DNA of 28,361 nucleotides from an uncultured Thermodesulfobacteriota bacterium (GTDB lineage: Bacteria > Desulfobacterota > DSWW01): assembly GCA_964609935.1 (NCBI GenBank), contig CAZSUQ010000001.1:1-28361 (forward strand), given 5' to 3'. Every line of letters starts with the position of its first letter. The stretch's first letter is position 1. Made by a program: the position numbers and the translations under genes. Of this stretch, positions 144 to 28,361 are shown piece by piece. The notes beneath the pieces are model-generated. The model had not been told where the DNA came from. It worked only from the letters and a program-made list of their open reading frames with translations, and did no database searches.

Positions 144-150
144 GGAGTAC

Positions 151-336: not shown

Positions 337-402
337 GGCTGGATCCTCGGGTACGTTTGGATTCTGATCTCGCGCTCTGACACGCACATCTTTTGGAATC
401 TC

Positions 403-450
403 AAAAAAAAATCCCGTGCCGCCCTGGGAATTGAGGAGACAGCACGGGAT
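403..450 (-). terminator. Probable intrinsic terminator downstream of the csp gene
   Basis: 9-bp inverted repeat ATCCCGTGC (411-419) / GCACGGGAT (442-450), followed on the minus strand by a T-run (A-run 403-411). The 22-nt loop is unusually large. Confidence 0.55.
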
Positions 451-469
451 GAATCATCGAGCGACTTCT

Positions 470-679
470 CTAGATAACGGTCACGTTGCTTGCAGCGGGT
501 CCTTTCTGTCCCTGTGTAACCACGAATTCCACGCGGTCACCTTCATTCAGGGTTTTGAACCCGTCTCCGGCGATTTCATTGAAGTGCACAAAAACGTCGC
601 CATCCCCCGATTCGCGAGAGATGAATCCGTAACCTTTGCTGCTGTTGAACCATTTTACGGTTCCTTTTTCTTTCTCCAT
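470..679 (-). CDS. csp: Cold-shock protein, CspA family (69 aa)
   Basis: GTVKWFN, RNP1 KGYGFI, RNP2 VFVHF and [10 protein letters not shown] motifs. AGGAGG precedes ATG 679. Confidence 0.97.
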
Positions 680-742
680 TTTAAGAGAACCTCCTTCTGG
701 TGATTGAATGTTTCCTCTGGAAGTTCCGCTTTTTTCCCACAT

Positions 743-776
743 AAAAAAACCGCCCAGACAGGTAAATCTGAGCGGT
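743..776 (-). terminator. Terminator-like hairpin inside the predicted csp 5' leader
   Basis: Minus strand reads ACCGCTCAGA-TTTACCTG-TCTGGGCGGT-TTTTTT: a 10-bp stem with one G.U pair, an 8-nt loop and a U-tract. Confidence 0.65.
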
Positions 777-822
777 GAAGCTTACGCCTTTAAAAAACAG
801 AACTTACCATACTTGAAATTAT

Positions 823-852
823 ATTATATGATAATTATTTCAAATTTGTCAA
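823..852 (-). promoter_or_regulatory. Consensus sigma70 promoter directed at csp
   Basis: Minus strand TTGACA (852-847), 18-nt spacer, TATAAT (828-823) in an AT-rich intergenic region. Predicted start site is about 816. Confidence 0.75.
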
Positions 853-879
853 ATGAAGGTTTTAAGGGGGAAGCAAACG

Positions 880-3212: not shown

Positions 3213-3276
3213 TCACCTGGTCGGGACATGGGTTGCTTTCCGATGGAGCCCGCATCATTGAAGCACCCCAGGAGAA

Positions 3277-4992: not shown

Positions 4993-5059
4993 GGTTGTCC
5001 TTCCCCCTGGTTGCACCTTATTTCAGAACCGGATGTTTCTACTTGACAGCCACGAAGAC

Positions 5060-5097
5060 GTATAGTAGATATATCTATACATGCAGTAAACACTGCA
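5060..5097. promoter_or_regulatory. Clustered palindromes, candidate operator(s)
   Basis: Perfect 12-bp palindrome TAGATATATCTA (5066-5077), overlapping GTATAG-N9-CTATAC (5060-5080), and TGCAGT-N4-ACTGCA (5082-5097). They lie between the divergent lipoprotein and tetR genes. Confidence 0.45.
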
Positions 5098-5112
5098 AAT
5101 AAGGTAATTTGT

Positions 5113-5141
5113 ACTTTACTCAATCTCCTCCAGGCTGTCAA
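5113..5141 (-). promoter_or_regulatory. sigma70-type promoter for the beta-propeller lipoprotein gene
   Basis: Minus strand TTGACA (5141-5136), 17-nt spacer, TAAAGT (5118-5113). Confidence 0.6.
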
Positions 5142-5258
5142 GGCAGAAGTTCCAGGAGTTTTACCCGCATATGCATGAAGTCTTCCACTGCTCTTGCGAT
5201 GAAATTTCGCGCAATATGCGGTCTGACTCATTGTCATTAGCGAATCGAGGCCGGCCCC

Positions 5259-5879
5259 ATGGAAACGGAAAATATCGTTCAGAAAACAAAGGACAAGCTG
5301 GTTGAGTACGAGAAGAGGCACCAGGGGATCCTGAAAGCCGCCATGCGGCTGTTCAATGCCAACGGCTATGCTGCAACAACCACAGCGAGCATTGCCAGGG
5401 CCGCGGGCGTTACGGAAAAGACCATGTACAGGCATTTCCAAATCAAGCAGGCCCTGTTTACCGAGTGCGTGTTGTCCATCACGAATGACCTGATGGGGAT
5501 ATGGCAAAAGGAGCGGGAAAGGAACAGGGGTGACAGTCTTGCCTACCTGAAGGCCGTGGCAAGCGCCTATGTGCAATTCGTGATCAACAACCCGGACAAG
5601 TCCATGTTCCTTGTCCACCTGTACAGCTACAGGGGGATCCCTGGAATGGACGAGGGCTTCAGGAGTTTTGTGCAGGATCGCATCAACGAAACCGAAAGGG
5701 TCATTCTCTCTTTGAAGGAGAAGGGCGTGGTCAAGAGCGACCTCCACCCCCGCGTGCTCGCCGGGGTGTTCATCGGTCAGTATTTCACCAATGTCTTTTT
5801 GAATGAGTTCCTTGGACCCGAGCTTTTCAACCCCGATGTCGTCGTCGAGCTGACCAAGGGCCTTTTGCGGATCGATTGA
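5259..5879 (+). CDS. TetR/AcrR family transcriptional regulator
   Basis: N-terminal HTH ILKAAMRLFNANGYAATTTASIARAAGVTEKTMYRHF; 206 aa. Confidence 0.95.
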   Translation: METENIVQKTKDKLVEYEKRHQGILKAAMRLFNANGYAATTTASIARAAGVTEKTMYRHFQIKQALFTECVLSITNDLMGIWQKERERNRGDSLAYLKAVASAYVQFVINNPDKSMFLVHLYSYRGIPGMDEGFRSFVQDRINETERVILSLKEKGVVKSDLHPRVLAGVFIGQYFTNVFLNEFLGPELFNPDVVVELTKGLLRID

Positions 5880-5896
5880 CGGCTCCAGCCCGCAAC

Positions 5897-5938
5897 TTGC
5901 ATGAAAATTCGCCAATCGCAGTAAAAGGCTTCATGCAA
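5897..5938. promoter_or_regulatory. Inverted repeat between tetR and the arylsulfotransferase gene (operator or hairpin)
   Basis: TTGCATGAA (5897-5905) / TTCATGCAA (5930-5938). TGCATGAA also occurs at 5172-5179, upstream of tetR. Confidence 0.4.
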
Positions 5939-5972
5939 TAGGCAGGCTGGTCAGGCAAAGGAGGCTTTCATC

Positions 5973-7361
5973 ATGAACAGAAGGGCAGTGTCTTTGTTGA
6001 GCATCGTCATGTTTACGCTTGTTGCGCTCACCGGTTTCGGGTGCAGCCTGCCGGTTCCCGGCGTCAGCGTCTACAAGCCGGAGAAGTGCGACAACGGCTA
6101 CACCCTGTTGACCTCCTTTGGCGCTCACGAAAGCCCGCCCGGCTCGGGCATCTACCATGGGGCCCTTCTCATCGACATGGAGGCCAGGCTCATCAATGCG
6201 TGGGAGATCACGGGAATGCCGGCCAAGATGCTCCCGGGCGGCCATGTAATGGGGTACGACGCCTTCAGGGACGACGGCAGCGGTCATCAGGACTGCAATG
6301 CTTTGGTGGTTCAGGACTGGTTCGGAAACGAGGTGTGGAGGTGGGACCAGTGGGATGTGGATGATCATGGAAACACCATCAGCCGGGGGCATCATGACTT
6401 TCAGAGGGAAGGCAACCCGGTGGGCTATCCGGTTCCGGGCATGGATCCCCTTGTTCACAGCGGCAAGACCCTCATCCTGAGTCACGAGAACGTGGTCAGG
6501 CCGGACATCGCGCCGTGGATCATCGAGGACGATGTTCTCCTCGAGGTGGATTATGCAGGAAACATCCTCTGGGAATGGCATGCGGTTGATCACCTCGATG
6601 AGTTCGGTTTCACCAGTAAGGCCAGGGCAGCCCTGCAGAGCGTACAGGTGACGGTCCCTGAGATCATGGGCGGGGGAGCCGATGTCACGGACTGGCTGCA
6701 CGTCAACAGCGCGAGTTACCTGGGCCCCAACCGGTTCCATGACCAGGGGGACGCCCGCTTCCATCCGGACAACATCATCGTGGACGCACGCAGCGCCAAC
6801 ATCATCTGGATCATCGAAAGGGCCACAGGGGACATCGTGTGGAAGGTGGGGCCGGACTACGGCTTCTTCCATCCGGAGAGAAAACTCGGTCAGATCATCG
6901 GGCAGCACCACGCCCACATGATCCCCAGGGGGCTTCCCGGCGAGGGGAACATCCTGGTTTTCGACAACGGCGGAGGGGCAGGGTTCGGCAAGCGGCTGGG
7001 CAAGCCCGTGTTCCCGCACAAGTATCGATTCTATTCAAGGGTGATCGAATTCGACCCCACCGATCTCAGCATCGTGTGGGAGTACGAAAGGCAGGAGCCT
7101 GCTCCAGGAGAGTACTACATGTTTTACAGCTACTTCATCAGCGGTGCGCAGCGGCTCCTGAACGGGAACACGCTCATCACCGAGGGCTCCACCGGAAGGG
7201 TGTTCGAGGTCACCGCCTCAGGCGAACTCGTCTGGGAGTACGTCTCCATCTACCACGATCTGTCCTTTGACACGATGCCCGGTCTTCTGCGTTTCGAGAA
7301 CGACGTGTACCGTGCCTACCGGGTCCCTTACGACTCCATTCCCAGCGAGTACCTTCCCTGA
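5973..7361 (+). CDS. Arylsulfate sulfotransferase (ASST) family putative lipoprotein
   Basis: HHDFQREGNPVGY, DWLHVNS, DARS, GQHHAH, LVFDNG and FYSYFISGAQRLLNGNTLITEG. The ASST-type His/Asn/Arg/His catalytic set appears intact. Signal peptide ends in GFGC. Confidence 0.9.
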   Translation: MNRRAVSLLSIVMFTLVALTGFGCSLPVPGVSVYKPEKCDNGYTLLTSFGAHESPPGSGIYHGALLIDMEARLINAWEITGMPAKMLPGGHVMGYDAFRDDGSGHQDCNALVVQDWFGNEVWRWDQWDVDDHGNTISRGHHDFQREGNPVGYPVPGMDPLVHSGKTLILSHENVVRPDIAPWIIEDDVLLEVDYAGNILWEWHAVDHLDEFGFTSKARAALQSVQVTVPEIMGGGADVTDWLHVNSASYLGPNRFHDQGDARFHPDNIIVDARSANIIWIIERATGDIVWKVGPDYGFFHPERKLGQIIGQHHAHMIPRGLPGEGNILVFDNGGGAGFGKRLGKPVFPHKYRFYSRVIEFDPTDLSIVWEYERQEPAPGEYYMFYSYFISGAQRLLNGNTLITEGSTGRVFEVTASGELVWEYVSIYHDLSFDTMPGLLRFENDVYRAYRVPYDSIPSEYLP

Positions 7362-7365
7362 GGGG

Positions 7366-9450
7366 TCAGCCCGTCTTTCTCAGTCGTCTCCGGATGACGG
7401 GGATGGCTCCCAGGGACACGAAGAGCGGACCGAGAAGGTTCAGCGCGTTCGTAACGGGAACGTGGTTGGCGTCCATGGAAGAAGCCGGCGTGCCCCAGGG
7501 AGGGGTGTTGGGGTCGCAGTCGTCATCGATCCCGTTTCCGGGGATCTCCGGAACGCCGGGGCTCACGTCGGGATTCCCATCGTTGCAATCCATCTCCGGG
7601 TGCGGGCATGACAGGGACGCCGGGTCCCCGTATCCGTCCCCGTCGAGATCCGTGCAGTCCAGGTAGGGGGCAAGCGGGTCCGTGTACCAGGAGGCCTCCA
7701 TGGGGCAGATCTGCGCGGGCGCCCCGGGATCGATCTCGCTCCCCTGGTAGGAGAGGCATTCAGGGCAGGCCGTTTCCATGCCCTGCCGGCCGTAAACCAG
7801 CAGGCAGGCGCCGCATGCAAAGGCGTCGCTCGATGGATTTGCGCAGTGCTTGCAGTCCTCGCTCTGGTCCTCCACGAAGTACCCTGTGGGCGTACCCTGC
7901 GGCTCGAGAAGCTGCCAGCCGTCGCGGAGCCGCCGGTTTGCATACGTCATGCCCCACATCCCTTCCTCGTTGCACAGGTAATCGCCGTTCGCGTCACAGA
8001 CCTCGCCCACGAGGTTCAAGCCCCAGGAAAGGGCGAACTCCCGTGTTGCCGTGATCCCGGCCGTGAGGAGGTCTGCGCCCGCATTCCGCTCATGCAGCGC
8101 CTGAATCATGGGGTGCTCGAAGTCGATGCTGCCGATGAGATCGATGACGCGCTGTTCCAGGAAGGCCTCCACGTTGGGGCAGTACACGTCGGCCGCATAG
8201 GCGCACAGGGGGTCTGTTCCCGGGCTCCTCGCATAGGTTCTTGCCGGGTAGTCTGTTTCGTGCAGCATCCACACCGTGACCGCACCGGCCCCGTGGCTGC
8301 AGCCCGTGGCCGAGTATGTGGGGCCGTCGATCAGCGCCTGCACCGGGCTCGTTGTCATCAGGTAGTCCTTCACCGACAGGAACTGGGAGGTCTCGGTGGG
8401 GTACGTGGCCGTGTCCAGACCGCCACCCTCGCAGTAAGGGTCCACGGTGACCACCATGAACCCCCGGTCCGTCCAGGGGCTCACACCGGCGTCATAGTCA
8501 TCCGCACAGGCGCCCCCGCCGCTTATGCTGAACAGCAGCGGACAGGGGGTTGCCGGGGTGCAGGTCTCGTCATCGTATGCCACCTTGAAGCGCGTGGGCA
8601 CCGGGTGCGTGAAGTCGCGGGGGGAGGTGATGAGCACCTCTTCGAAGCAGGTCAGCCCGGCGGCGCAGTAGGTGGGGTGGAAGTCGAACATGTCGCCCTC
8701 GCCCGGAGCGTGGTTGGTGATCAACACCACGTCGATCAGGCCGTCGAACCCTTCGGCGATCTTCACCCCATACCCCTGGGGGGGCTCGAGCCCGGTGACG
8801 TCCACCTCGGCGGCCACCTCGCCGTCCAGGAACAGGCGGACAACAGGCACTACGCCGCTGGTGTCCACGGAGAGGGTCAGATGGTGGTATGCACCGTCAG
8901 CGGGCCAGGAAACACCCGTGGGGATGGAAACCGTTCCCCCGCCGCTGCCGGGCCCTTCGACGACGAACTCGCCGGCAACGAGCTTCACATAATGTGCGTC
9001 GTCGGCCACGAGGATATGGCCTGAGCTTGCATCACGCGCCTTGAGCCATGCGAACAGGGTCATGATCCCTGACCCGGAAATGCCGTAGTCCGGGCACTCG
9101 ATCTCGATGGAGCCGTCGCCGGCCGGAATATCCGCGGCACGCCCGTAACGCCCTTCGGTGATCGCGCTTCGCCGCGCCTCCCCGGTGAGCAGGGCCGTGC
9201 ATTGCCCGATCCCCAGGGAGGAGTTGTTGTTCTGCATGTTGTTCAGTTCTGCGAACCCGTTGTGAGCGCCCGCGCCGTCGATTTCGTCATCAAAGCTCAG
9301 CTCCACCCGGCGCCCCGCGTGTGCAGGATCAAAGGGTGTCAAAGCTGCGGCGAAGATGATCAGAACGCCCAGAAACATGGCGAACCCTCGATATCTTGCA
9401 ACATGCTTGCATGTGCTGTTGATTCCGGCTCTTGCAGTTTCCCTGATCAT
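7366..9450 (-). CDS. Secreted multidomain protein: LamG/ConA-like domain + alpha/beta-hydrolase-like domain + MopE-type metal-binding repeat + C-terminal membrane anchor
   Basis: Signal peptide ending AHA. LamG-like segment (TLFAWLK, YHHLTLSVD, RLFLDGE, FDGLIDVVLI). ISGGG and G-C-S-H-G elbow at 8290-8304. CNDGNPDVSPGVPEIPGNGIDDDCD at about 7513-7587. Hydrophobic tail followed by RRRLRK. AGGAGG RBS. Confidence 0.75.
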   Translation of the reverse strand: MIRETARAGINSTCKHVARYRGFAMFLGVLIIFAAALTPFDPAHAGRRVELSFDDEIDGAGAHNGFAELNNMQNNNSSLGIGQCTALLTGEARRSAITEGRYGRAADIPAGDGSIEIECPDYGISGSGIMTLFAWLKARDASSGHILVADDAHYVKLVAGEFVVEGPGSGGGTVSIPTGVSWPADGAYHHLTLSVDTSGVVPVVRLFLDGEVAAEVDVTGLEPPQGYGVKIAEGFDGLIDVVLITNHAPGEGDMFDFHPTYCAAGLTCFEEVLITSPRDFTHPVPTRFKVAYDDETCTPATPCPLLFSISGGGACADDYDAGVSPWTDRGFMVVTVDPYCEGGGLDTATYPTETSQFLSVKDYLMTTSPVQALIDGPTYSATGCSHGAGAVTVWMLHETDYPARTYARSPGTDPLCAYAADVYCPNVEAFLEQRVIDLIGSIDFEHPMIQALHERNAGADLLTAGITATREFALSWGLNLVGEVCDANGDYLCNEEGMWGMTYANRRLRDGWQLLEPQGTPTGYFVEDQSEDCKHCANPSSDAFACGACLLVYGRQGMETACPECLSYQGSEIDPGAPAQICPMEASWYTDPLAPYLDCTDLDGDGYGDPASLSCPHPEMDCNDGNPDVSPGVPEIPGNGIDDDCDPNTPPWGTPASSMDANHVPVTNALNLLGPLFVSLGAIPVIRRRLRKTG

Positions 9451-9701
9451 GGATCCGTCCTCCTTCCCTGTCTTGGTCGTTGATTGGACACCAGGAAGAT
9501 CGCCGACAGGCAGGCATGGACGCCGAAGCTGATCGCGCGCAACTTCGCCGGCCTCCTGCTCCGATCATATCCCTTCAATGGTTTCTTATAAAGTAAAACA
9601 CAGGAAAAAGGGGAAGGTTCTGATCTTCCTGCGGAAAGTGTAGAATAGGTCAACATGGCAGGGTCATCTTCAGCAATGAAACGCGTATCGGAGAATGCAT
9701 A

Positions 9702-10355
9702 ATGTTTCCATTCATGAGAACGATAAGATCGGTGACAGGGGCCAAGCTTCTTGGCCTGATGTTTGCCTGTGCCGCGCTCGCGGTGGCGGTTGTGCTGGTG
9801 GCGGTGGGGGCCCTCACCTGGCTCACGGCCCACCTGGTGGACATCCAGATCGGATGGCTGGACAGCCTGGTCAACTGGCTCACAGGCGGCATTCTGGGCG
9901 TTGCCGGCTGGTTCATGCTGCCCGCGATCATTGTGCTCGTATCCGGCATGTTTCAGGAAAAGACGATCCACCGGGTGGAGCTTGCCTACTACCCGGATGA
10001 GGTGCGTACCGAGGAGCCCGGGTTCTGGCCCGACCTGGCGCATGACATCCGGTTCACCTTGAGGGCGTTGATTCTCAATGTCCTGGTCCTGCCTCTGTAC
10101 CTCCTTGGTATCGGCTTTGTCATATCCGTTCTCCTCAACAGCTACCTTTTGGGTCGCGAGTTCTTCGAAGGTGCTGCCGGTTATCACATCGGGAAGCCGG
10201 AAGCCAAAACCATCGGTCAGCGGAACAGGGTCGCGGTCTACGGGGGCGGTCTCGTGATCACGCTGATGGCCCTGGTGCCCGTGATGAACCTCTTCGTCCC
10301 GATCTTTGCCGTCGTCTGGATGGTGCATGTTTATCACGGGTTGAAGAAGGGATGA
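9702..10355 (+). CDS. EI24/CysZ-like membrane protein
   Basis: Several hydrophobic helices, FQEKTIHRVELAYYP and NSYLLGREFFE, typical of EI24-domain proteins. Confidence 0.75.
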   Translation: MFPFMRTIRSVTGAKLLGLMFACAALAVAVVLVAVGALTWLTAHLVDIQIGWLDSLVNWLTGGILGVAGWFMLPAIIVLVSGMFQEKTIHRVELAYYPDEVRTEEPGFWPDLAHDIRFTLRALILNVLVLPLYLLGIGFVISVLLNSYLLGREFFEGAAGYHIGKPEAKTIGQRNRVAVYGGGLVITLMALVPVMNLFVPIFAVVWMVHVYHGLKKG

Positions 10356-10365
10356 CCGCCTGCAT

Positions 10366-10400
10366 GCCGTCTCTGCAGGAAGGTCGCAGAGGCGGCTGTT
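10366..10400 (+). terminator. Hairpin after the EI24 gene, possible terminator
   Basis: GCCGTCTCTGC-N9-GCAGAGGCGGC (11 bp, one G.U pair), followed only by TGTT, a weak U-tract. Confidence 0.35.
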
Positions 10401-10608
10401 AGAGATTTCACGAAACGTGTGCTCTCCCCGGGAAAATGAAAACTCGAATCGCCTGTTCACGGCCGAGCCGACTTTCCGTCTCCGCAGCTTCTGCTCATTA
10501 CGTAAGCTTCCCGGTTCATTCCTCACCCTGAATTCGGGTAGAAAAACCGGCTTCTTTACACTGCCGGACCTGCCCCACCTGTCTTCTGAAACCCTCCTGA
10601 AAATTCCC

Positions 10609-10638
10609 TTGACAAGTCCCGGCGGATTCGGGTACAAA
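10609..10638 (+). promoter_or_regulatory. Possible sigma70 promoter of the IclR operon
   Basis: TTGACA (10609-10614), 18-nt spacer, TACAAA (10633-10638). The -10 match is imperfect. Confidence 0.4.
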
Positions 10639-10645
10639 ACAGGCA

Positions 10646-10682
10646 GTTGCATATAATGATATTGAGTTGCAAATAGCGCAAC
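10646..10682. promoter_or_regulatory. Candidate tandem IclR operator
   Basis: GTTGC-AAATAGC-GCAAC (10666-10682) is preceded 20 bp upstream by a degenerate copy GTTGC-ATATAAT-GATAT (10646-10662), just before the IclR start. Confidence 0.55.
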
Positions 10683-10698
10683 ATAGATCAGGGAGAGC

Positions 10699-11484
10699 AT
10701 GGAACAAAAACCCAGCACACACGCTGCCGTGGAGAAGGCCTTGAGGATCCTGCTCGCCTTCACACCTCAAAACGAAGGCCTGGGGACCCAGGAGCTGAGT
10801 GAAAAGCAAGGGCTCCACAAGTCCACCACCAACCGCCTGCTCAAGGTCCTTGAGAAACACGGGTTCGTTGAACAGGACGCAGAGACGAAGAAATATCAGC
10901 TGGGGAGATCCGCGGTTCAGATTGGAAGGGCTGTTGTACAGTCCCTGGACACACGTCTGGTTTCCATTGCAAGGCCTTATGTCCACAACCTCCGCGACCA
11001 GCTGAACGAGGGCGTGGCCCTGGAGGTGTGGGCCGGGGACACCACGGTTTTGTCCTACGCAGTGGAAGGGCCCCGGCTCGTCCGGGTCTCGGCCGACCTG
11101 GGGCAGCGAATGCCCGTGCACGTTGCCGCCGGAGCCAGGGCGATCATGGCCTTTTTGCCACCGGAGATCGTGGACGAGCTGCTCAGGCAACAGTTCACAC
11201 GCTACACAAGAAAAACGGTGACCGATCCGCGTGTCATCAAGCGCAGGCTGAAGGATGTAAGGAAAGCCGGGGTGGCATTTGATTACGGCGAGTTGGACGC
11301 GGACATGCAGGGTATGGCGGCCCCGGTCTTTAATTACAGCCAACGGCCCGTGGCAGCCATTGTGACCGTGGGGCCGGCCTCACGCATGAAGGCAGTCATG
11401 GGATCCAAAAAAACGACTTTCCTGCTAAAGGAAACCGCAGCGAACATTTCGTCCAGGCTTTACTATGACAGGGAGGAAACATGA
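10699..11484 (+). CDS. IclR family transcriptional regulator
   Basis: AVEKALRILLAF, HTH LSEKQGLHKSTTNRLLKVLEKHGFVEQD...KYQLG, and effector domain AGARAIMAF...MAAPVF. Confidence 0.95.
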   Translation: MEQKPSTHAAVEKALRILLAFTPQNEGLGTQELSEKQGLHKSTTNRLLKVLEKHGFVEQDAETKKYQLGRSAVQIGRAVVQSLDTRLVSIARPYVHNLRDQLNEGVALEVWAGDTTVLSYAVEGPRLVRVSADLGQRMPVHVAAGARAIMAFLPPEIVDELLRQQFTRYTRKTVTDPRVIKRRLKDVRKAGVAFDYGELDADMQGMAAPVFNYSQRPVAAIVTVGPASRMKAVMGSKKTTFLLKETAANISSRLYYDREET

Positions 11485-19567: not shown

Positions 19568-20143
19568 TCAGGATACCTCACTCACCGCCCTCTTCCCCAG
19601 TGAATACGCCTCCTGCTTTGCCTTGCCGTCCTTGTTCACCGCACCCTTTTCGGCTGCGGAAGCCAGAACGGCTCCCAGCCAGCTCATGCCGGTGAATTGA
19701 CTCGTCATTTTGAAGGAGTGGACCACCGGGTCCGCGATGGACACGTCGGGGGCTCCACACACCGTGATCACACCGATCTTCTTCCCTTCCATCTTGGGGA
19801 GGTGGTTTTCATGCCACCTCCATTCGGCATCGAAGAAGGCGCACCACCGGTCCAGGTAGGCCTTCATCTGTGCGGTCATGGAAAAGAAGTAGACCGGGAC
19901 GCTGTGGATGATCGCATCCGCCTGGAGGATCTTCCCGTGAATCTCCTGCATGTCGTCATCGATCACGCACGAGCCCGTCTCGATGCATTGCTTGCAGTCC
20001 ATGCATCCGGAAATCTTCTTCCGAACGAGAGTTATCTTTTCCACCTCGGCACCGGACTCCCGTGCGCCCGACAGGGCCTGATCCAGGAGGATGTCGCTGT
20101 TCCCTTTGATCCTGGGACTTCCGAGTACACCCAAAACTTTCAT
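19568..20143 (-). CDS. Flavodoxin-fold iron-sulfur flavoprotein (Isf / NADPH-dependent FMN reductase family)
   Basis: MKVLGVLGSPRIKGNS, CMDCKQCIETGSC (CX2CX2CX5C) and PVYFFSMTAQMKAYLDR. GGGAG precedes ATG 20143. Confidence 0.9.
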   Translation of the reverse strand: MKVLGVLGSPRIKGNSDILLDQALSGARESGAEVEKITLVRKKISGCMDCKQCIETGSCVIDDDMQEIHGKILQADAIIHSVPVYFFSMTAQMKAYLDRWCAFFDAEWRWHENHLPKMEGKKIGVITVCGAPDVSIADPVVHSFKMTSQFTGMSWLGAVLASAAEKGAVNKDGKAKQEAYSLGKRAVSEVS

Positions 20144-20174
20144 GACCGTGTCTCCCATTCCATAGGGTCTGATC

Positions 20175-20795
20175 CTAAAGGCCGCCCAGGGTCTCTTTGA
20201 ATGCCCGGACCACCTCGGGCAGATTCCCGGCGGACATGATGGCTGAAATCACACCGACCCCGGCCGCGCCCTTCTCTATGCACACGCCCGCATTCCCAGG
20301 TGTGATGCCTCCCACTGCGAGAACCGGGATCCCCACAGCCTCGGCAACCTCGGACAGTGCATCGAGCCCCTTTGGGGCGCCGTACCTTCTTTTTGAAGGT
20401 GTGTCGAAAACGGGTCCGAAAAGGAGGAAGGAGGCCCCTTGTGCTTCCGCCTCTCTTGCACGCTCCAGGGAATGTGCACTCGCCCCCACAAGGGTCGAAG
20501 GAGAAAGCCGGCGAGCCGCATCCACCGGCAGGCCGCTCTCCGTGCAGTGAACGCCGTCCGCACCCACGGCAAGAGCGATGTCTGCCCGGTCATTGATCAG
20601 GAGCCTGGCCCCTGCCTGCCGGGTCAGCTCCCTCACCGTGGTTGCCTGATCGTAGAGGGCCCGTCCGGGGAGGTCCTTTTCTCGAAGCTGCACCGCACGA
20701 ACACCTTCCCCGCATGCATCCTTCACGATTCTCTCGAGAGGCAGGGGGCTGCACAGGGTTCTGTCGGTGATGAGATAAAGCCTGAAATCGATCAT
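20175..20795 (-). CDS. thiE: Thiamine-phosphate synthase (ThiE/TenI family)
   Basis: LYLITDR, VQLREK, INDRADIA, GVH, GASAHS, FGPVFDTPSK and AVGGIT. FGPVF (not TenI FGHVF) favours ThiE. The start is uncertain (20795 or 20819). Confidence 0.8.
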   Translation of the reverse strand: MIDFRLYLITDRTLCSPLPLERIVKDACGEGVRAVQLREKDLPGRALYDQATTVRELTRQAGARLLINDRADIALAVGADGVHCTESGLPVDAARRLSPSTLVGASAHSLERAREAEAQGASFLLFGPVFDTPSKRRYGAPKGLDALSEVAEAVGIPVLAVGGITPGNAGVCIEKGAAGVGVISAIMSAGNLPEVVRAFKETLGGL

Positions 20796-20841
20796 CCTGA
20801 GAATCTGCCAAGAGCCCAAAGATTAGGGGACAACCTCGTGA

Positions 20842-21627
20842 TCAACGATCCGGCCCCTTGCCGATGATCCCCTCCAGCGGGCTCGATGCCGTGGCATAGA
20901 GCTTGCGCGGGATGCGGCCGGCCCGGGAGGCAAGCCGTCCGGCCTCCACGGCGAGACGCATGGCGCGCGCCATCTCCACCGGGTGCTTGGCCTGGGCCAC
21001 GGCGGTGTTGAGGAGGATGGCGTCGAACCCGAGTTCCATGGCGATGGCCGCGTCCGATGCGGTCCCCACGCCGGCATCCACCACGAGGGGGATATCGATC
21101 AATTCCCGGATGATCATCAGGTTGTAGGGGTTCCGGATTCCCATGCCCGAGCCGATGGGCGCGCCGAGAGGCATGACCGCAGCGCATCCCATGTCAGCGA
21201 GTTTCCTGCACGTGATCGGGTCATCGTTGCTGTAGGGCATGACCACGAATCCTTCCTTGAGAAGCTCCTGGGCGGCCTTCAGCAGCTCAGGGATGTCCGG
21301 GAAGAGGGTCTCGTCGTCACCGATCACCTCGAGCTTGACCCAGTGGGTCCCGAGCGCCTCTCTGGCAAGATGCGCGGTGAGCACGGCCTCCTTTGCGGTA
21401 TAGCAGCCGGCCGTGTTCGGCAGGATCGCGTACTTCTTCCGGTCAATGAGATTGAGGACGCTCTCCTCGTCCTGGTCTTCGAGATTGACCCTCCGGATCG
21501 CCACCGTGACCAGTTCCGTGCCGCTCGCCTCCAGCGCGTCCAACATGATCTGGGGGTTCGGGTAGCGGGAGGATCCCATGATCAACCTTGATGTAAATGT
21601 TCGGTCCGCAATCTTCAGCTCGTCCAT
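20842..21627 (-). CDS. thiG: Thiazole synthase
   Basis: [35 protein letters not shown] and LLNTA. Start chosen at MDELK (GGAG RBS); an alternative ATG is at 21666. Confidence 0.97.
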
Positions 21628-21687
21628 CCCTTTCAGCTCCGTTTTTCCGGCTACAGTGTTCTCCATGGATGTGGATTCCGCAACAGG

Positions 21688-21894
21688 CTAGCCACCTTGC
21701 ACAGCCCGGATGATCTCGAGCCTGTCCCCTTCCCGGAGTTCCCTTTCTTCCCACTTGTCTCTGGGAACCACTGCATCGTTCACCGCCACGGCGATGCCCT
21801 GCAGGGGCGCCGACTCCATCATCTGCTCGAGCAGTTGCTTGAGGGTGGCCCCGGCTTCCACCTCGGTATCCTTGCCGTTTACCAGCAAACGCAT
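21688..21894 (-). CDS. thiS: Sulfur carrier protein
   Basis: MRLLVNG...IAVAVNDAVVPR...LREGDRLEIIRAVQGG with a C-terminal GG. GGAG precedes ATG 21894. Confidence 0.95.
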   Translation of the reverse strand: MRLLVNGKDTEVEAGATLKQLLEQMMESAPLQGIAVAVNDAVVPRDKWEERELREGDRLEIIRAVQGG

Positions 21895-21969
21895 CTCGAA
21901 TCTCCGGGTCAATCCATAAGGTGATTCCACACGGGTGTTCCGGTCCTGTGGCAGCCCACCCATGGGATT

Positions 21970-23136
21970 CTACCAGTTTATGGAACGTTTTTCAGCGGGA
22001 AGGAACCGGGTGGGTTTGAAGGGCTCGAAAAACCCGGAGGAGGCGTCTTCAAGGATCAGACCGGAGATTTCATCGGCCGTGGCCGGTGCAAGCAGGATCC
22101 CGTGGCGATAGTGCCCGGTGGCGTAATAGAGACCCTGGATCGGGCTCTTTCCCACAATGGGGTTGTGGTCCCGGCTTCCGGGTCGAAGCCCGGCCAGGAT
22201 CTCTCGGATGGGCAGGTCGTATATGCCCGGCATGGCTTCCCATCCCCTTTCAAGGAGCCGAAAGATCGGGCCGGCGGTGATCGTCGTGTCAAACCCCATC
22301 TCTTCTTCCGAGGCCCCCAGGATGACACGGCCGTCCCCCTTTGGCAGGAGGTAGGCATCCGGGGCCCGGACCACATGGGAAAACGTGTACTCCTCGATCT
22401 CTTCCAGGGTGATGATCTGCCCTTTGACAGGGCGGACAGGAGGCAGCAGTTCCCTGGGTATGCCTTCGATGCCTTTGGACCAGCAGCCTGCGGCGATCAC
22501 CACACGGTGGGCTTCCACATCGCCGTCCTCTGTCCGGAGCCCCTGCACCTGTTCATTGTCTACGTGAACCCTGGAGACCGGGCATCCCTCGTTCAGCGTT
22601 CCGCCGCGCTTCTGGAATGCGGCCTTGAGCAGCTCCACGAGCCTTCGGTTGTCCACCTGGTGGTCATCCGGTATCCAGATCGCGGAGCTGGCCCTTGGCG
22701 ATATGAAAGGCTCGATCTCGCGGGCCTCGGTCCCTGTGAGCCATTTTACCGGGAGGCCCAGGTCCTCCCTGAACACATGAAGCCTTCGGAGCCGTTCGGC
22801 ATCGTCCCTGTCGAGGCCGATGATCAGCGTTCCCCGGGTATCCAGTGCGATCTCGTCGCCCGCATCCTCTGCGAGCTCCTTGAGGAAGCCGGGAAAAAGG
22901 CGGAGGCTCTCCCGGCCCAGGGCCAGAAACTCCAGTTCCTCGAAACCAACCTCCGAAAGGGGGGCGAGCATGCCTGCCGCGATCCAGCTGGCCCCCTGTC
23001 CGACCCTGTCCTTCTCATACAGGGAAACGGCCGCACCCTTGCGGGCGAGCCGCCACCCTGTGGCAAGCCCGATCACCCCGCCACCCACGATGGCAACAGG
23101 TGTCTGAGGGCTGTTTTTCCGGTTGTTTGCCGCCAT
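21970..23136 (-). CDS. thiO: Glycine oxidase
   Basis: IVGGGVIGL FAD motif, ASWIAAGMLAP, PVKGQI, GLRP and ATGHYRHGILLAP. Directly upstream of thiS-thiG. Confidence 0.92.
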   Translation of the reverse strand: MAANNRKNSPQTPVAIVGGGVIGLATGWRLARKGAAVSLYEKDRVGQGASWIAAGMLAPLSEVGFEELEFLALGRESLRLFPGFLKELAEDAGDEIALDTRGTLIIGLDRDDAERLRRLHVFREDLGLPVKWLTGTEAREIEPFISPRASSAIWIPDDHQVDNRRLVELLKAAFQKRGGTLNEGCPVSRVHVDNEQVQGLRTEDGDVEAHRVVIAAGCWSKGIEGIPRELLPPVRPVKGQIITLEEIEEYTFSHVVRAPDAYLLPKGDGRVILGASEEEMGFDTTITAGPIFRLLERGWEAMPGIYDLPIREILAGLRPGSRDHNPIVGKSPIQGLYYATGHYRHGILLAPATADEISGLILEDASSGFFEPFKPTRFLPAEKRSINW

Positions 23137-23161
23137 GAAGGACCCCTTTCCCGAAGAAAGG

Positions 23162-23191
23162 ACAATAGGGGAACCGCTGTCTGCTTGTCAA
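23162..23191 (-). promoter_or_regulatory. Possible sigma70 promoter for the thi operon
   Basis: Minus strand TTGACA (23191-23186), 18-nt spacer, TATTGT (23167-23162). This implies a leader of only about 20 nt. Confidence 0.5.
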
Positions 23192-23340
23192 CAAACCCGG
23201 CCGGTCATTTCCCCTGGAAAGGCATCAAAGAGGATAGAAGGCAGGACGCCCGGAGATATCGTTCCGGATGAAATGAGATAGATGTTCCCGGAAGAGAATT
23301 CGTGTGATCCCTTGAACAAACCCGACGGTTTGACGACAGG

Positions 23341-24537
23341 TTATCCCTGCTGGTCCTCTCCGGCCAGCTGGAGAGCTTTTTCGGAGAGTTCCCGCCCGGC
23401 GTCGCGGCACTCGTCCAGGATCTCCTTTGTGGGGGCGAACTGCACCTCAATGGGATCACGGGAAAGCGCGAATTTCATGTCCTTCAGGTAGCCTTCGATG
23501 TCGCGGCAGGCCCCCTTGGACCATCCGTACGACCCAAAGGAGAATCCGGCCTTTCCGCTTGGCTTGAACCCTTTGAGGTAGGCCAGCAGCGCAGCGAGCT
23601 GGGGCATGAGGGTCTGGTTGAGGGTTGCAGACCCGAATGCGATGGCTGCAGAGTCCAGGACCTCGGTGGCCAGGTTCGTCAGGTCGTTGTTGCGCACGAA
23701 GAAGAGCTTTACGTCGACCCCTGGAATCATCGCACCCTCCAGGACCGCACTGGCCATCTTCTCGGTGCTGTGCCACATGGTATCGTAGATGATCAGGACC
23801 TTTGCCTTCCGTCGGCCCTTCACCCAGTCCTGGTAAGCGCTCACGATCTTGTCCACATGGGTCCGCCAGATCACACCGTGACTCGGGGCGATGATGTCAA
23901 TATCGATTTTGCTAGCCGTGTCCAGCGCTTTCTGGCCCGGCGCCCGGTAGAGCATCACGATATTCGCAAAATAGGCTTTCGCCTCTGCCATGATCACATC
24001 CAGGGATTCCTGGTCGTCGAAGCGGCCTCCCGAGGCATAATGCTGCCCAAAAACGTCCATGGAGAACAGGAGCTTTTCCTCTTTTACATAGGTCATCATG
24101 GATTCCGGCCAGTGCACCATGGGTGTGTTGACAAAGGTCAGGGTCCTTTTCCCGAGTGAAAGGGTCTCCCCGTCCTTGACGATCTGAACGTTCCATCCCT
24201 CGGTGTCATAATACATGCCCAGGTACTTCAGGCACTTGTCGTTGCAGACGAGGACTGCGTTGGGGCAGGCTTTCATGACCTCGGGAAGCGCGCCCGAATG
24301 GTCCGGCTCCGCGTGGTTGCAAACGATGTAATCGATCTTGGAAAGGTCTGTCCGCGACTGGATGTTCTGCAGGAGGTTCTGCGCAAAAGGCCTCTTCACC
24401 GTGTCGATCAGCGCCGTCTTCTCGTCCTGAACGAGATAGGCGTTGTAGGTTGACCCTCGATCCGTTTTGTAACTGTGAAAATCTCGAACGTTCCAATCCA
24501 CAAAACCTATCCAGTCGATTCCTTCGCAGAGTTGCAT
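23341..24537 (-). CDS. fprA: Flavodiiron protein (A-type flavoprotein; O2/NO reductase family)
   Basis: YNAYL, NHAEPDHSG, HWPESM, SMDVFGQH and PSHG, plus a C-terminal flavodoxin domain (YDTMWHSTE, FGSYGWS). AAGGAG RBS. Confidence 0.95.
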   Translation of the reverse strand: MQLCEGIDWIGFVDWNVRDFHSYKTDRGSTYNAYLVQDEKTALIDTVKRPFAQNLLQNIQSRTDLSKIDYIVCNHAEPDHSGALPEVMKACPNAVLVCNDKCLKYLGMYYDTEGWNVQIVKDGETLSLGKRTLTFVNTPMVHWPESMMTYVKEEKLLFSMDVFGQHYASGGRFDDQESLDVIMAEAKAYFANIVMLYRAPGQKALDTASKIDIDIIAPSHGVIWRTHVDKIVSAYQDWVKGRRKAKVLIIYDTMWHSTEKMASAVLEGAMIPGVDVKLFFVRNNDLTNLATEVLDSAAIAFGSATLNQTLMPQLAALLAYLKGFKPSGKAGFSFGSYGWSKGACRDIEGYLKDMKFALSRDPIEVQFAPTKEILDECRDAGRELSEKALQLAGEDQQG

Positions 24538-25547: not shown

Positions 25548-26306
25548 CTATTCAACCCTGCCTCCAAAAGCGAAGATCGTCCCCTGAATGATGGGCGTGA
25601 TGGCCGCGATCTGCTCGAACGTGAAGTAGGCGCCGCGTATCCTGTGGGTGCTTTTTCGATATTCCCGTGCGTGTTCTTCTGACCAGAAGAATACACACTT
25701 CTGTCAGAACGCGTGGATGATGCTCGGGTCCTCCAGCGCGTAGAGGTCCACATCCGGTACAAAGACGAGGGGATCCGCCCCCTGCTCCCTGACGCTGTAT
25801 TTGAGCTCACTGTCTATTTCCACGTGCATCTGCCGGGAGCAGTGAGCGCATTCCGTCCCCACCAGGACCGAAAGGGGCTCTCCACGCAATTGCCCTTGCA
25901 CGAAGGGCGACGCAAACGCGTCGGCCGCTCAGGCCGCGTAGAGCTGTTCCCCCGTGCTGAACGTGAGGTGGTGCGGCGTGGGTTCAACGGTCACCGGATA
26001 CGCCCAGACGACTTCCCCTTCACGGTTTCGGTAGAGGAACGTCATGTGCGCTTCCATCTCTGCCAGGATCTCGGGAACGCGTTCCGCGGGCATTCCCAGG
26101 TTGTCGGCGATGAATCCCGGCGATAGGGGTTGCCCGGCACGGGGAAGCTCCCTGACGACAAAATGATGAACCGTCCGATGTTCATCGGTCATGAACCCGG
26201 TTTCGGCATCGATTTTCTTCTTCATTCTGTGAATCTGTTTCTTCCAGAGGGTCGGCGGAACCTGGAGCATGATCCTCCAGAATCCGCTCATGAGCTTGTT
26301 GCTCAT
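25548..26306 (-). CDS. MerB (alkylmercury lyase)-like protein with two predicted selenocysteines (U126, U201), 252 aa
   Basis: One frame runs from ATG 26306 to TAG 25550-25548, with in-frame TGA at 25931-25929 (LYAA-U-AAD) and 25706-25704 (HAF-U-QKCVFFWS). These align with MerB LYAWCALD and SFCCHVHFF. SECIS-like hairpins follow both TGAs. Confidence 0.82.
25669..25698 (-). promoter_or_regulatory. Bacterial SECIS-like element after the second UGA
   Basis: UGA-CAGAA-GUGUG-(UA bulge)-UUCUUCU-[GGUC]-AGAAGAA-CACGC. The upper stem starts 12 nt after UGA and the apical loop contains GGU. Confidence 0.75.
25884..25921 (-). promoter_or_regulatory. Bacterial SECIS-like element after the first UGA
   Basis: Upper stem GCCCUU-[CGUGC]-AAGGGC with its loop 26 nt after UGA, and lower stem ACGCG/UGCGU. 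A competing hairpin GACGC-GUUU-GCGUC is possible. Confidence 0.55.
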
Positions 26307-27670
26307 GGCATGTCTCCCCTTGTTGAGAATCGCAGTACAACAAAGCCAAGTACAGCAGAAAGGATGGACGCTGCAAAGATACCCACCTTGGAGTACATGA
26401 GCATCTGAGGGTCTTCAAAGGCCAGGCCGTTGATGAACAGGGCCATGGTGAAGCCGATCCCAGCCAGACAGGCTACTCCAGCGATCATGGTCCAGGTAAC
26501 CCCCTTTGGAATCTCCGCGAGGCCGAGTCTGGCGGCACACCATGAAAAGAGAAAGATTCCCACAGGCTTTCCGAGCAAGAGCCCGAGGAAGACGCCCATG
26601 GGTAACGGATTGGAAATCAACATCGTCAGGTTCACATCCGTGAGATGAACACCTGCATTGGCAAAGGCAAAGACAGGGATCACGACGAAGCTGATCCAGG
26701 GATGGAGGTCATGAACAAGCCGGTTCAGGGGGGAGATGGCGCGCGTGATGTCCCGGGCTTCCTTCACCAGATCCGGGGCGCTCTCCGGGTGGACGAGTTC
26801 CTGGTCATGATCTACCCGTACGGACTGAACAACCTTGTCGGTGAGTCTTTGCAGGGAGTCGGCAAGAACCGGTGGCCGGACCCAGTTTTCAAGGGGTGTG
26901 AGAAGCCCCAGAAGGACGCCGGAGATGGTGGGGTGAATGCCGGACTTGAGGAACGAAAGCCACACCAGGAAACCCACGGCGCCGCTGACCCAGATTCGCC
27001 GCACGCCGATGTACCGGACAAGGACCATGAGGCCGAAAGAGAGGGCCGCTGCACCCAGGGCCAGGCCGGAAAGCTGCTCGGTGTAGAAGAAGGCGATCAC
27101 CAGGACCGCGCCCAGGTCGTCCACGATGGCCAGGGCGAGAAGAAAGACCTTGAGCGAGACAGGCAGGCTCCGGGTGAGGAGTACCAGGATCCCCACGGCA
27201 AAGGCGATGTCCGTGGCCATGGGAATGCCCCAGCCCTTTGCGCCGGGTTCGCCGAGATTGAACAGGAGAAAGATGGCCGCCGGAAGGATCATCCCGCCCA
27301 GGGCCGCGGCAATGGGCAGAACCGCCTTCTTGGGTGTGGAGAGCTCGCCGATGGTGAGCTCCCTTTTGATCTCCATCCCGATGAAAAAGAAGAACAGGGT
27401 CATGAGGGCGTCGTTGATCCAGTGAACCAGGGTGTTGTCCAGGACAAAAGATCCGATCTGGAGCTTGCATCGCATGTGAATGAGATGGTGGTACGATTCC
27501 CACCAGGGGGAGTTGGCCCAGATCAGTGCGGCACCCGTGCTGAGCAGGAGAAGGATGCCCCCCGCGGACTCGGTCCGGAGGAACTGCTCCACCGGATAGG
27601 CAAGGTACTGAACCGCTTTTGCAACCGTGTGGTCAGGGCCTGACTCGATGTCGTTTTTCGTGTCTTTCAT
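26303..27670 (-). CDS. nhaA: Na+/H+ antiporter NhaA (455 aa)
   Basis: HWINDALMTLFFFFIGMEIKRE, GWGIPMATDIAF, LAIVDDLGA, GKPVGI and GIGFTMALFI. AGGAAGGA precedes ATG 27670. Confidence 0.96.
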   Translation of the reverse strand: MKDTKNDIESGPDHTVAKAVQYLAYPVEQFLRTESAGGILLLLSTGAALIWANSPWWESYHHLIHMRCKLQIGSFVLDNTLVHWINDALMTLFFFFIGMEIKRELTIGELSTPKKAVLPIAAALGGMILPAAIFLLFNLGEPGAKGWGIPMATDIAFAVGILVLLTRSLPVSLKVFLLALAIVDDLGAVLVIAFFYTEQLSGLALGAAALSFGLMVLVRYIGVRRIWVSGAVGFLVWLSFLKSGIHPTISGVLLGLLTPLENWVRPPVLADSLQRLTDKVVQSVRVDHDQELVHPESAPDLVKEARDITRAISPLNRLVHDLHPWISFVVIPVFAFANAGVHLTDVNLTMLISNPLPMGVFLGLLLGKPVGIFLFSWCAARLGLAEIPKGVTWTMIAGVACLAGIGFTMALFINGLAFEDPQMLMYSKVGIFAASILSAVLGFVVLRFSTRGDMP

Positions 27671-27693
27671 GGTCCTTCCTGAGGTGCAAGTCT

Positions 27694-28361
27694 CTACATC
27701 AACCAGCCTGCGGCACTCCGGGCGATATCCAGGAACGGCGCAGGATAGATCCCTGCCGTGACCAGCAGGGCGATCATGCCCCATGTCAGCAGCTTGGTGG
27801 CCAAGGAGAGCTGAAGCGGGGGCAAGGCTTCATCCCCTTCCAGGAGGTAGGCGGCCCGGATGATCATGAGGTAATAGTAGAGCGAGATGACCACGTTGAA
27901 CATAGCGATGAAGACCAGGGCAAGGTGTCCCTGCTCGATGGCCGCAAGAAAGATCACGAGCTTGCCTGTGAAGCCCATCGTGGGTGGGATGCCGGCCAGG
28001 CTGAAGGCGCTCACCATGAGGGCCAGTGCCAGAAGGGGGGAGCGATGATGGAGCCCGGCAAGTTGATCGATCCGAAGGTTGTCCCCGCCGGAGGCCACCT
28101 TCACCACCACGAGGAAGAAGGTGAACTGCATCACCATGTATGCCAGGGCATAGAAGAGGGTCCCGGTGAAGCCGTCCCGGCTCATGCAGAGGATCCCGAT
28201 CAGGATGTAGCCCGCATGGGCGATGCTCGAATAGGCCAGAAGCCGCTTCAGGTCCTTCTGAACGATGGCCACAAGGTTCCCCAGGGTCATGGAGACAACG
28301 GACAGGGTCACCAGGATGTGGGTGAGGAAGGAGCTCTGGCCGCCCACGAGCGAGACCATGC
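27694..28361 (-). CDS. nuoN: NADH-quinone oxidoreductase subunit N (C-terminal part; 5' end outside the window)
   Basis: GNLVAIVQKDLKRLLAYSSIAHAGY, SLAGIPPTMGFTGK and VISLYYYL. Confidence 0.88.
   Translation of the reverse strand, partial: MVSLVGGQSSFLTHILVTLSVVSMTLGNLVAIVQKDLKRLLAYSSIAHAGYILIGILCMSRDGFTGTLFYALAYMVMQFTFFLVVVKVASGGDNLRIDQLAGLHHRSPLLALALMVSAFSLAGIPPTMGFTGKLVIFLAAIEQGHLALVFIAMFNVVISLYYYLMIIRAAYLLEGDEALPPLQLSLATKLLTWGMIALLVTAGIYPAPFLDIARSAAGWLM

Follow-up and report, generated by a model that had tools for sequence, protein, structure and literature searches.

A MerB-fold protein family with in-frame UGA codons at both catalytic cysteine positions, each followed by a conserved SECIS-like hairpin

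Introduction

The gene discussed here poses a question about two codons: when a reading frame related to the organomercurial lyase MerB carries an in-frame UGA at each of the two positions that hold the catalytic cysteines of MerB, are these UGAs stops, or are both read as selenocysteine (Sec) with the help of selenocysteine insertion sequence (SECIS) hairpins located within the coding sequence itself? The gene lies in a stretch of 28,361 nt from an uncultured Thermodesulfobacteriota bacterium (Desulfobacterota; DSWW01), namely positions 1 to 28,361 of the forward strand of contig CAZSUQ010000001.1 (assembly GCA_964609935.1), which was analysed at its full length and is hereafter called the window. 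A reading made from the letters alone (the sequence-only reading) had pointed out a hairpin after each UGA, likened one of them to the SECIS of Escherichia coli fdhF and proposed that both UGAs are actively recoded. The proposal is borne out at the sequence level by the conservation of both TGAs, the coding signature around them, the synonymous invariance and compensatory changes of the hairpins, and their fit to the published bacterial SECIS (bSECIS) model. We put the probability that the gene encodes a MerB-fold enzyme with both catalytic Cys replaced by Sec, each UGA having its own intragenic SECIS, at about 0.9.

A MerB-fold family with UGA at both catalytic cysteine positions

MerB cuts mercury-carbon bonds; its Asp99 is the proton donor, and Cys96 and Cys159 are metal-binding catalytic residues. 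With its two internal stops written as Cys, the window protein matches the Pfam MerB family (PF03243) with an E-value of 2.7e-14 and a score of 53.6 bits against a cutoff of 27. In a phmmer alignment to the MerB structure 3f2g, the two TGAs fall on Cys96 and Cys159 and Asp99 is kept. Around the first site, LYAW-C-ALD of MerB is aligned with LYAA-(UGA)-AAD of the window protein, such that Asp129, the equivalent of Asp99, lies three residues after the first UGA (UGA-1), and the second UGA (UGA-2) follows UGA-1 at a distance of 75 codons. The structure model was made for a homologue (P0001), which is 62% identical to the window protein and carries Trp at both Sec sites. This AlphaFold model has a predicted local distance difference test (pLDDT) score of 89.8, and the top 11 PDB matches found for it by Foldseek are all MerB (E-value of ~3e-11, TM-scores of 0.62-0.81 normalised by the target). 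Profile match and model place the protein in the MerB fold family. It shares the fold of canonical MerB (PF03243; PDB identifiers 3F0O, 3F2F and 5C17) with TM-scores of 0.75-0.81 normalised by the target, and the three active-site positions 96, 99 and 159 align with the Asp kept, whereas the identity is only ~18-20% and the two Cys of canonical MerB are predicted to be Sec here. An assignment to canonical MerB itself was rejected, since the window protein scores 57.8 against a cutoff of 193 and 49.7 against a cutoff of 200 for the NCBIfam models NF009710 and NF033555, respectively. No mer operon or mer genes were found in the window or in the conserved neighbourhoods of the homologues.

The closest known parallel is SaoL, a MerB-like organometallic lyase (NCBIfam NF040728) that marks the nine-gene SAO locus (Haft and Gwadz, bioRxiv 10.1101/2022.07.06.499078). 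SaoL and the window protein are alike in their MerB fold, in having Sec (predicted in the window protein) at the Cys159 position, in their anaerobe hosts and in database entries that are cut at UGA. However, SaoL has a single Sec within a Cys-Sec (CU) dipeptide, Cys at the Cys96 position and a length of ~213 amino acids (aa), whereas the window family has F-U or Y-U (Phe-Sec in the window protein), a second predicted Sec at the Cys96 position and, in the window, 252 aa. An identity with SaoL was likewise rejected, the window protein scoring 40.7 bits against the NF040728 cutoff of 140 and lacking the CU dipeptide, and no SAO-type neighbourhood or conserved transporter locus was found around the homologues. 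NCBIfam holds no model for this two-Sec family.

Homologues were collected by scanning one genome per GTDB species, which gave 410 matching genomes of which the best 80 loci were compared, and by scanning metagenomes, which gave at least 548 matching contigs of which the best 80 were compared, 79 of them being parsable at both sites. Without exception, these 80 genome loci and 79 metagenome loci have TGA at the two sites. Together with the window and a further locus described below (L088), they make up 161 double-TGA loci, 159 of them distinct, and TGA stands at both sites in 161/161. One more metagenome locus (L096) has TGA at the first site, after which its contig ends. The best 80 genome loci belong to Syntrophales, Smithellaceae, Desulfobacterales, Desulfomonilaceae, Nitrospirota, Chloroflexota/Dehalococcoidia and others. 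In 39 of 79 genome loci, the gene immediately upstream, in the same orientation, encodes a regulator (MarR-type in 21, MerR-type in 18), which suggests inducible expression.

The double-UGA architecture is also mirrored in the way the family has been deposited. A protein search returned ~70 clusters that end exactly at GEQLYAA, i.e., are cut at the first TGA, while clusters of ~200 aa end at IIDAF, the cut at the second TGA; public gene calls split such genes into fragments of 125 aa and 41 aa, and all the NCBI-sourced members seen are truncated hypothetical proteins. There are also seemingly full-length homologues from the Joint Genome Institute (JGI) (P0001-P0048), which carry Trp at both Sec positions. 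However, the DNA behind one protein of this type (L088, positions 515-1273) reads TGA at the two sites, and its translation differs from the stored protein; thus, the Trp is a gene-calling artefact, in which TGA is read as Trp on short contigs.

Two conserved hairpins downstream of the UGAs

The hairpin after UGA-2 (SECIS-2) stands out even in the single sequence. At minimum free energy (MFE) it folds in the window as GUGUGU-A-UUCUUCU-GGUC-AGAAGAA-C-ACGCAC with -15.4 kcal/mol, its upper stem beginning 12 nt and its loop 19 nt after UGA-2, and a 41-nt segment has a z-score of -5.0 (0/200 shuffles fold as well), compared with -2.3 for a 60-nt segment. Across the 159 distinct sequences, to which all the counts out of 159 below refer, the upper stem has all seven pairs formed in 159/159 and the loop is GGUC in 159/159. 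The variation seen at the top of this stem keeps the pairing: with positions numbered from the U of the UGA, pair 22-27 is UA in 145, CG in 11 and UG in 3 sequences, and the change of UGG to CGG, which replaces Trp with Arg (W208R), always occurs together with a silent change of UCA to UCG. Similarly, pair 19-30 is CG in two sequences, where Phe is replaced by Leu together with a silent change of GAA to GAG. The lower stem is far less constant; pairing is seen in 156/159 at 14-35, 139/159 at 13-36, 122/159 at 12-37 and 82/159 at 11-38, while 10-39 and 9-40 are mostly unpaired, so that only the inner two to four pairs recur in homologues.

The hairpin after UGA-1 (SECIS-1) is encoded by the last base of Ser133, the codons of Pro-Phe-Val-Gln-Gly (134-138) and the first base of codon 139; residue 133 is Ser in the window protein and Thr in most homologues. 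Its folding z-score in the window is about -0.8 to -1.0 in a GC-rich context, and hence hairpin 1 cannot be established from the single sequence; it is the comparative data that establish it. The five core pairs are formed in 156-159 of the 159 sequences, and the loop is CGUGC in 157/159, with GGUUC or GGUCC in the other two. The closing pair 24-40 is GC in 133 and UA in 15 sequences, and pair 28-36 is UA in 134, UG in 23 and CG in 2. In the two sequences with CG, UUC has changed to CUG together with a silent change of CAA to CAG, and the loop becomes GGUYC; Phe to Leu changes in the stem are thus also seen with a silent Gln change, as pair-keeping double changes. Two competing structures downstream of UGA-1 were rejected as they are not conserved among the 159 sequences. 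The first is a perfect 6-bp hairpin, CGACGC-GUUU-GCGUCG (25923-25908, minus strand), starting 8 nt after UGA-1, which has an A-A mismatch in 139/159; it is found in the window alone, where residue 133 is Ser and not the Thr of the homologues, and its formation would come at the expense of the SECIS-1 closing pair. The second is a 10-bp alternative, which is part of the MFE fold of the 60 nt after UGA-1 in the window.

Controls and shuffles, both run on 80-sequence alignments, agree with these observations. Paired cells amount to 98.7% for SECIS-1 as against 21-68% for controls in which the pairing partner is slid, and pairing in SECIS-2 falls from 86% to 36-63% in the same kind of control. The observed covariation score is reached by 0/500 shuffles for either hairpin.

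An independent line of evidence comes from codon choice. At conserved residues gene-wide, two-fold degenerate codons have a synonymous entropy of 0.9-1.0 bit and four-fold degenerate codons one of 1.5-2 bits, but the entropy collapses to 0-0.7 bit at codons 134-138 and 206-211, and these are the only such collapses along the gene. For example, among the 80 genomes SECIS-1 is written with CCC (79/80), UUC (80/80), GUG (80/80), CAA (66) or CAG (14), and GGG (80/80), and SECIS-2 with UUC (80/80), UUC (80/80), UGG, UCA (68) or UCG (12), GAA (80/80), and GAA (72) or GAG (8). As the synonymous collapse coincides exactly with the two hairpins, it points to a constraint at the RNA level. As judged from these comparisons of sequence, both hairpins are functional RNA elements, and since they are made of codons, they hold constant not only the peptides PFVQG and FFWSEE but also the codons chosen for them.

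The geometry drawn in the sequence-only reading is largely recovered in this analysis. Its hairpin after UGA-1, a 6-bp stem with a loop beginning 26 nt downstream, was found where it had been placed, as was its hairpin after UGA-2 with a 7-bp upper stem, a GGUC loop and a stem starting 12 nt after the UGA, and the covariation across homologues that it had asked for is present as compensatory changes in both stems, the hairpins being conserved in TGA-containing homologues. Its 5-bp lower stem with a UA bulge below SECIS-2 did not hold up, being one of two registers available in the window, with a pair (12-35) that forms in just 42/159 sequences, whereas in the MFE register, which contains a 1x1 mismatch, U14 pairs with A35, as it does in 156/159.

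Comparison with the bSECIS model and with fdhF

In the published bSECIS model, the loop measures 3-9 nt and has a G at its first or second position, usually followed by G or U; the upper stem comprises 4-16 bp, the loop lies 16-37 nt from the UGA and the MFE is no higher than -7.5 kcal/mol (PMC13188914, Fig. 2A). Both hairpins are stem-loops inside the coding sequence immediately after an in-frame UGA. SECIS-2 agrees with the model in all respects, with a 4-nt GGUC loop, 7 bp, a distance of 19 nt and an MFE of -9.7 (28 nt) to -15.4 (60-nt context). SECIS-1 agrees in loop length (5 nt), stem (5-6 bp), loop sequence (CGUGC) and distance (26 nt), and is borderline in energy. Rfam yields nothing at its gathering threshold or in a permissive local scan of the window.

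To compare SECIS-2 with the element it had been likened to, the fdhF sequence of E. coli K-12 was folded. Like both hairpins here, the fdhF SECIS is intragenic and directly follows its UGA. The GGUC loop is identical to that of SECIS-2 and the spacing nearly so: the apical helix starts 11 nt after UGA in fdhF as against 12 nt in SECIS-2, the loop follows at 18 as against 19 nt, and the loop nucleotides are 22-25 from the U of UGA as against 23-26. Unlike fdhF, whose bulged U sits three pairs below its loop, SECIS-2 has an uninterrupted 7-bp stem closed by U-A with a variable 1x1 mismatch beneath it, and the sequences outside the loop are unrelated. Thus, the proposed likeness to fdhF stands for the loop and the spacing of SECIS-2, but not for the bulged U, as the upper stem is uninterrupted in 159/159, and it does not extend to SECIS-1, which differs in its 5-nt CGUGC loop at 26 nt.

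Loss of selenocysteine and decay of hairpin 1

If the hairpins serve to recode the UGAs, they are expected to fare differently in relatives that have replaced Sec, and the sequence-only reading had singled out the Cys-containing homologues in this regard. A profile search identified a large and diverse sister group of 163-207 aa, with Cys at site 1 and an end at the second TGA (P0125-P0190). The motif PFVQG, which encodes hairpin 1, is kept in 13 of 63 Cys-at-site-1 clusters as against 45 of 54 TGA-at-site-1 clusters, another four of which have the stem-compatible PFVEG. The other motifs of the Cys group, such as PFVQA, PFVES, PFVQS, AFVLG and PFVLG, mostly break the 3' arm of the hairpin-1 stem. 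At the DNA level, one locus of this group (L175, positions 5001-5640 of a 1.27-Mb contig) has TGC at site 1, and the sequence at its hairpin-1 position, GCCCUUCGUGCAAUCGC, folds at just -0.1 kcal/mol, while UGA-2 and its hairpin UUCUUCUGGUCAGAAGAA are intact. UGA-2 is kept in all the Cys-at-site-1 loci examined. In a locus without Sec (L176; Ser at site 1 and Cys at site 2), mismatches are present in both hairpins. The Cys-containing homologues therefore speak for the SECIS reading, the hairpin-1 motif having been lost in the established Cys group and the stem destroyed in L175; on the sequences compared, hairpin 1 persists together with UGA-1 and degrades in the forms with an established Cys.

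A MarR gene is located upstream of the L175 gene in divergent orientation, and the assignment of the Cys-at-site-1 group to SaoL was rejected, the L175 protein scoring 42.2 bits against the cutoff of 140. The metagenome scan described above, which was seeded with Cys-at-site-1 sequences and aimed at such a clade, gave only double-TGA loci among the best matches compared; the established Cys group turned up in the profile search alone.

The two sites differ in how readily Sec is lost. Its loss has occurred many times at site 1 (the Cys96 position) but is seen in just two sequences at site 2 (the Cys159 position). SaoL shows the same polarity, with Sec at the Cys159 position and Cys at the Cys96 position.

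Several observations weigh against the SECIS reading. At least seven tip lineages that lack UGA-1 keep hairpin 1 nucleotide-perfect; they have TGT or TGC (L081/L082, L083, L084, L085 and L086), TGG (L087 and L174) or GGT (L173) at site 1. One of them, L173, lacks both UGAs (GGT at site 1, TTA at site 2) and keeps both hairpins. The established Cys-at-site-1 group is represented by DNA in one locus (L175) and otherwise at the protein level. The homologous loci were retrieved by peptide patterns that include FFWSEEH and PFVQG, which may enrich these motifs at the amino-acid level; a second scan, that of the metagenomes, also used the pattern VVWAYPVT, which is independent of both hairpins. Finally, the MFE of SECIS-1 is -7.4 kcal/mol for the 17-nt hairpin of the window and -7.0 on average in the family, compared with the published threshold of -7.5.

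The loss variants occupy separate tips, with double-TGA forms as their nearest relatives, and the nucleotide-perfect hairpin 1 in them is best read as a fossil SECIS. Where Trp or Gly stands at a catalytic position, this points to copies that are decaying or not catalytic, or to sequencing errors.

The alternative with most to offer is that the hairpins act beyond, or instead of, local recoding, for instance by loading SelB before the second UGA, by pausing or through SelB-mediated regulation. That hairpin 1 is nucleotide-identical in every recent UGA-1-loss variant, and that L173 retains both hairpins with neither UGA, is what such a role would predict. Further, L083 and L085 are mutual closest relatives (80% amino-acid identity, four-fold-site identity of 0.61) and Cys is found in both; on the assumption that their common ancestor already had Cys, the chance of every free hairpin site remaining unchanged under neutrality is estimated at ~0.08. 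This value is not significant, however, and L083 uses TGC where L085 uses TGT. More generally, the variants that retain the hairpin are singletons nested among double-TGA relatives, as expected of recent and short-lived losses, whereas the motif has been lost in 50 of 63 established Cys clusters (48 of 63 if PFVEG is counted as stem-compatible). L175 keeps UGA-2 and hairpin 2 with the stem of hairpin 1 destroyed, which implies that hairpin 1 is not needed for decoding UGA-2. We therefore consider a second role quite unlikely. A broader proposal combines such a role (SelB loading or regulation), as the explanation for nucleotide-perfect retention after UGA loss, with an enzyme whose Sec/Asp/Sec site acts on a substrate other than classical organomercurials, for example one with a carbon-metal or carbon-metalloid bond, the whole being a widespread and unrecognised family of diselenol MerB-like lyases; this combination, too, appears unlikely.

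Peptide motifs and reading frame

It could be argued that the hairpins have no function at the RNA level and are by-products of the peptide motifs PFVQG and FFWSEE, given that the residues for which the stems code vary hardly or not at all and that Phe and Glu codons are naturally complementary. However, peptide conservation does not account for the four-fold sites of Pro, Val and Gly, which are invariant in 79-80 of 80 genomes as against 1.5-2 bits elsewhere in the gene. Moreover, an amino acid is sacrificed to keep a pair, UGG changing to CGG only with UCA to UCG, and PFVQG relaxes once site 1 is Cys. We regard a peptide-level origin of the hairpins as highly improbable; the conservation is better explained if they are SECIS elements.

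The reading frame itself was assessed from nucleotide variation among the homologues. Codon positions 1/2/3 have entropies of 0.93/0.76/1.59 bits upstream of UGA-1, 1.02/0.71/1.57 bits between the UGAs and 0.98/0.84/1.66 bits downstream of UGA-2. The variation at third positions is far greater than that at first and second positions in all three segments, which thus evolve in the manner of a single reading frame. Of the 12 other Pfam-confirmed genes of the window, 7 normally end in TGA, which argues that the genetic code is not reassigned. That the TGAs are true stops of a split or decaying gene, or Trp or Gly codons under a reassigned code, has in its favour the public calls of 125-aa and 41-aa fragments or of Trp on short contigs, and is nevertheless scarcely credible in view of the same two catalytic positions being affected in 161/161 loci from many phyla, the purifying selection on all three segments, the TGA-terminated neighbouring genes and the fact that the recurrent alternative at site 1 is Cys, not Trp.

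Coordinates and genomic context

The features of the gene are listed in Table 1. Its ATG shares bases with the TGA stop of the upstream nhaA (ATGA, 26306-26303).

Table 1. Features of the MerB-like gene and its hairpins in the window (positions count from the first nucleotide of the window)
Feature	Position	Strand	Details
Coding sequence of the predicted MerB-family selenoprotein	25548..26306	-	252 codons + TAG; translation through two in-frame UGAs
Shine-Dalgarno-like AAGGGGAG	26314..26321	-	7 nt 5' of ATG; read from the sequence, function putative
UGA-1, codon 126, predicted to be read as Sec	25929..25931	-	Equivalent to MerB Cys96 by alignment
SECIS-1	25892..25908	-	GCCCUU / loop CGUGC / AAGGGC; loop 25902-25898, 26 nt after UGA-1
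UGA-2, codon 201, predicted to be read as Sec	25704..25706	-	Equivalent to MerB Cys159 by alignment
SECIS-2 core	25674..25691	-	7-bp upper stem UUCUUCU/AGAAGAA, GGUC tetraloop 25684-25681; codons Phe-Phe-Trp-Ser-Glu-Glu 206-211
SECIS-2 full hairpin in the window	25667..25698	-	6-bp lower stem, 1x1 A/C mismatch, core; MFE structure
True stop TAG	25548..25550	-	Read from the sequence

In the window, the tail of a nuo operon is followed by nhaA and then by the MerB-like gene, and no MarR- or MerR-type regulator is present there. The neighbours of the gene (19568-24537 and 26303-28359) are ordinary housekeeping genes, viz., thiE, thiG, a thiO-like gene, an FMN reductase, a flavodiiron-type protein, a GT2 glycosyltransferase, nhaA and the last nuo subunits, and no mer- or selenium-related genes were found among them. 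No tRNA, including tRNA-Sec, was found in the window. In the region 1-11343, Pfam searches at 1e-5 gave no match for the open reading frames 853-2217, 1680-3212, 3277-5016, 4989-5915, 5931-7019, 9447-10763 and 10516-11343, while the sole match of the open reading frame 7366-9450 is a MopE-type copper-binding motif.

The contig of the window recurs in three JGI metagenomes, and the label that public runs give to the source is marine metagenome. A 215-nt contig from a sediment metatranscriptome, with ~96% identity to 25940-26154, is uninformative on recoding. Marine metagenome runs contain short and very deep contigs on both SECIS cores (25657-25691 and 25887-25922), including one of 32 nt with a depth of 140, and evidently the same k-mers are common to many organisms in the sample.

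Proposed decoding mechanism and significance

Based on the above, we propose that each UGA would be decoded by the SelB-GTP-Sec-tRNA(Sec) complex recruited by the hairpin immediately downstream, such that Sec is inserted instead of termination taking place. The apical stem-loop just outside the mRNA channel is the part predicted to be bound by SelB as the ribosome reaches the UGA. For SECIS-2, the ribosome is expected to unwind the lower stem, so that the 7-bp helix with its GGUC loop would stand free at +12, an arrangement like that in fdhF. It is plausible that two independent recoding events make the full-length yield selenium-dependent, as the sequence-only reading had anticipated, and that products of 125 aa and 200 aa could arise. 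The resulting diselenolate/Asp site probably carries out the protonolysis of a carbon-metal or carbon-metalloid bond. SelB binding, the insertion of Sec and the enzymatic activity are all predictions from sequence.

The vast majority of the 119 prokaryotic selenoprotein families in a 2026 catalogue have a single Sec, and the catalogue has no MerB entry other than SaoL (PMC13188914). Its UxxU metal-binding and FmdB-family proteins likewise have more than one UGA-encoded Sec, but there the Sec residues are within one short motif, whereas in the present family 75 codons separate them and a SECIS of its own is predicted for each. The one-Sec SaoL is the only MerB-like selenoprotein in the open literature, which was the extent of our search (subscription journals and the supplements of screens fell outside it), and on this provisional footing the two-Sec MerB family is new.

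Found in 410 genomes that each represent a species, on at least 548 metagenome contigs and in 1354 protein clusters at E <= 1e-20, the family would be a widespread addition to the prokaryotic selenoproteome, one that gene calls have fragmented or mistranslated with Trp. An active site of the MerB type in which both catalytic thiols are replaced by selenols would be unusual, and it would bear directly on organometal chemistry, including that of methylmercury, in the anaerobes that dominate mercury cycling. The two hairpins, being compact and extremely conserved, offer test cases for SelB recognition outside Enterobacteria. The co-occurrence of double-Sec, Cys/Sec and rare no-Sec forms amounts to a natural experiment on the birth and decay of SECIS elements, and the same family may also inform how an intragenic RNA fixes protein sequence and which of the two MerB cysteines gains most from selenium.

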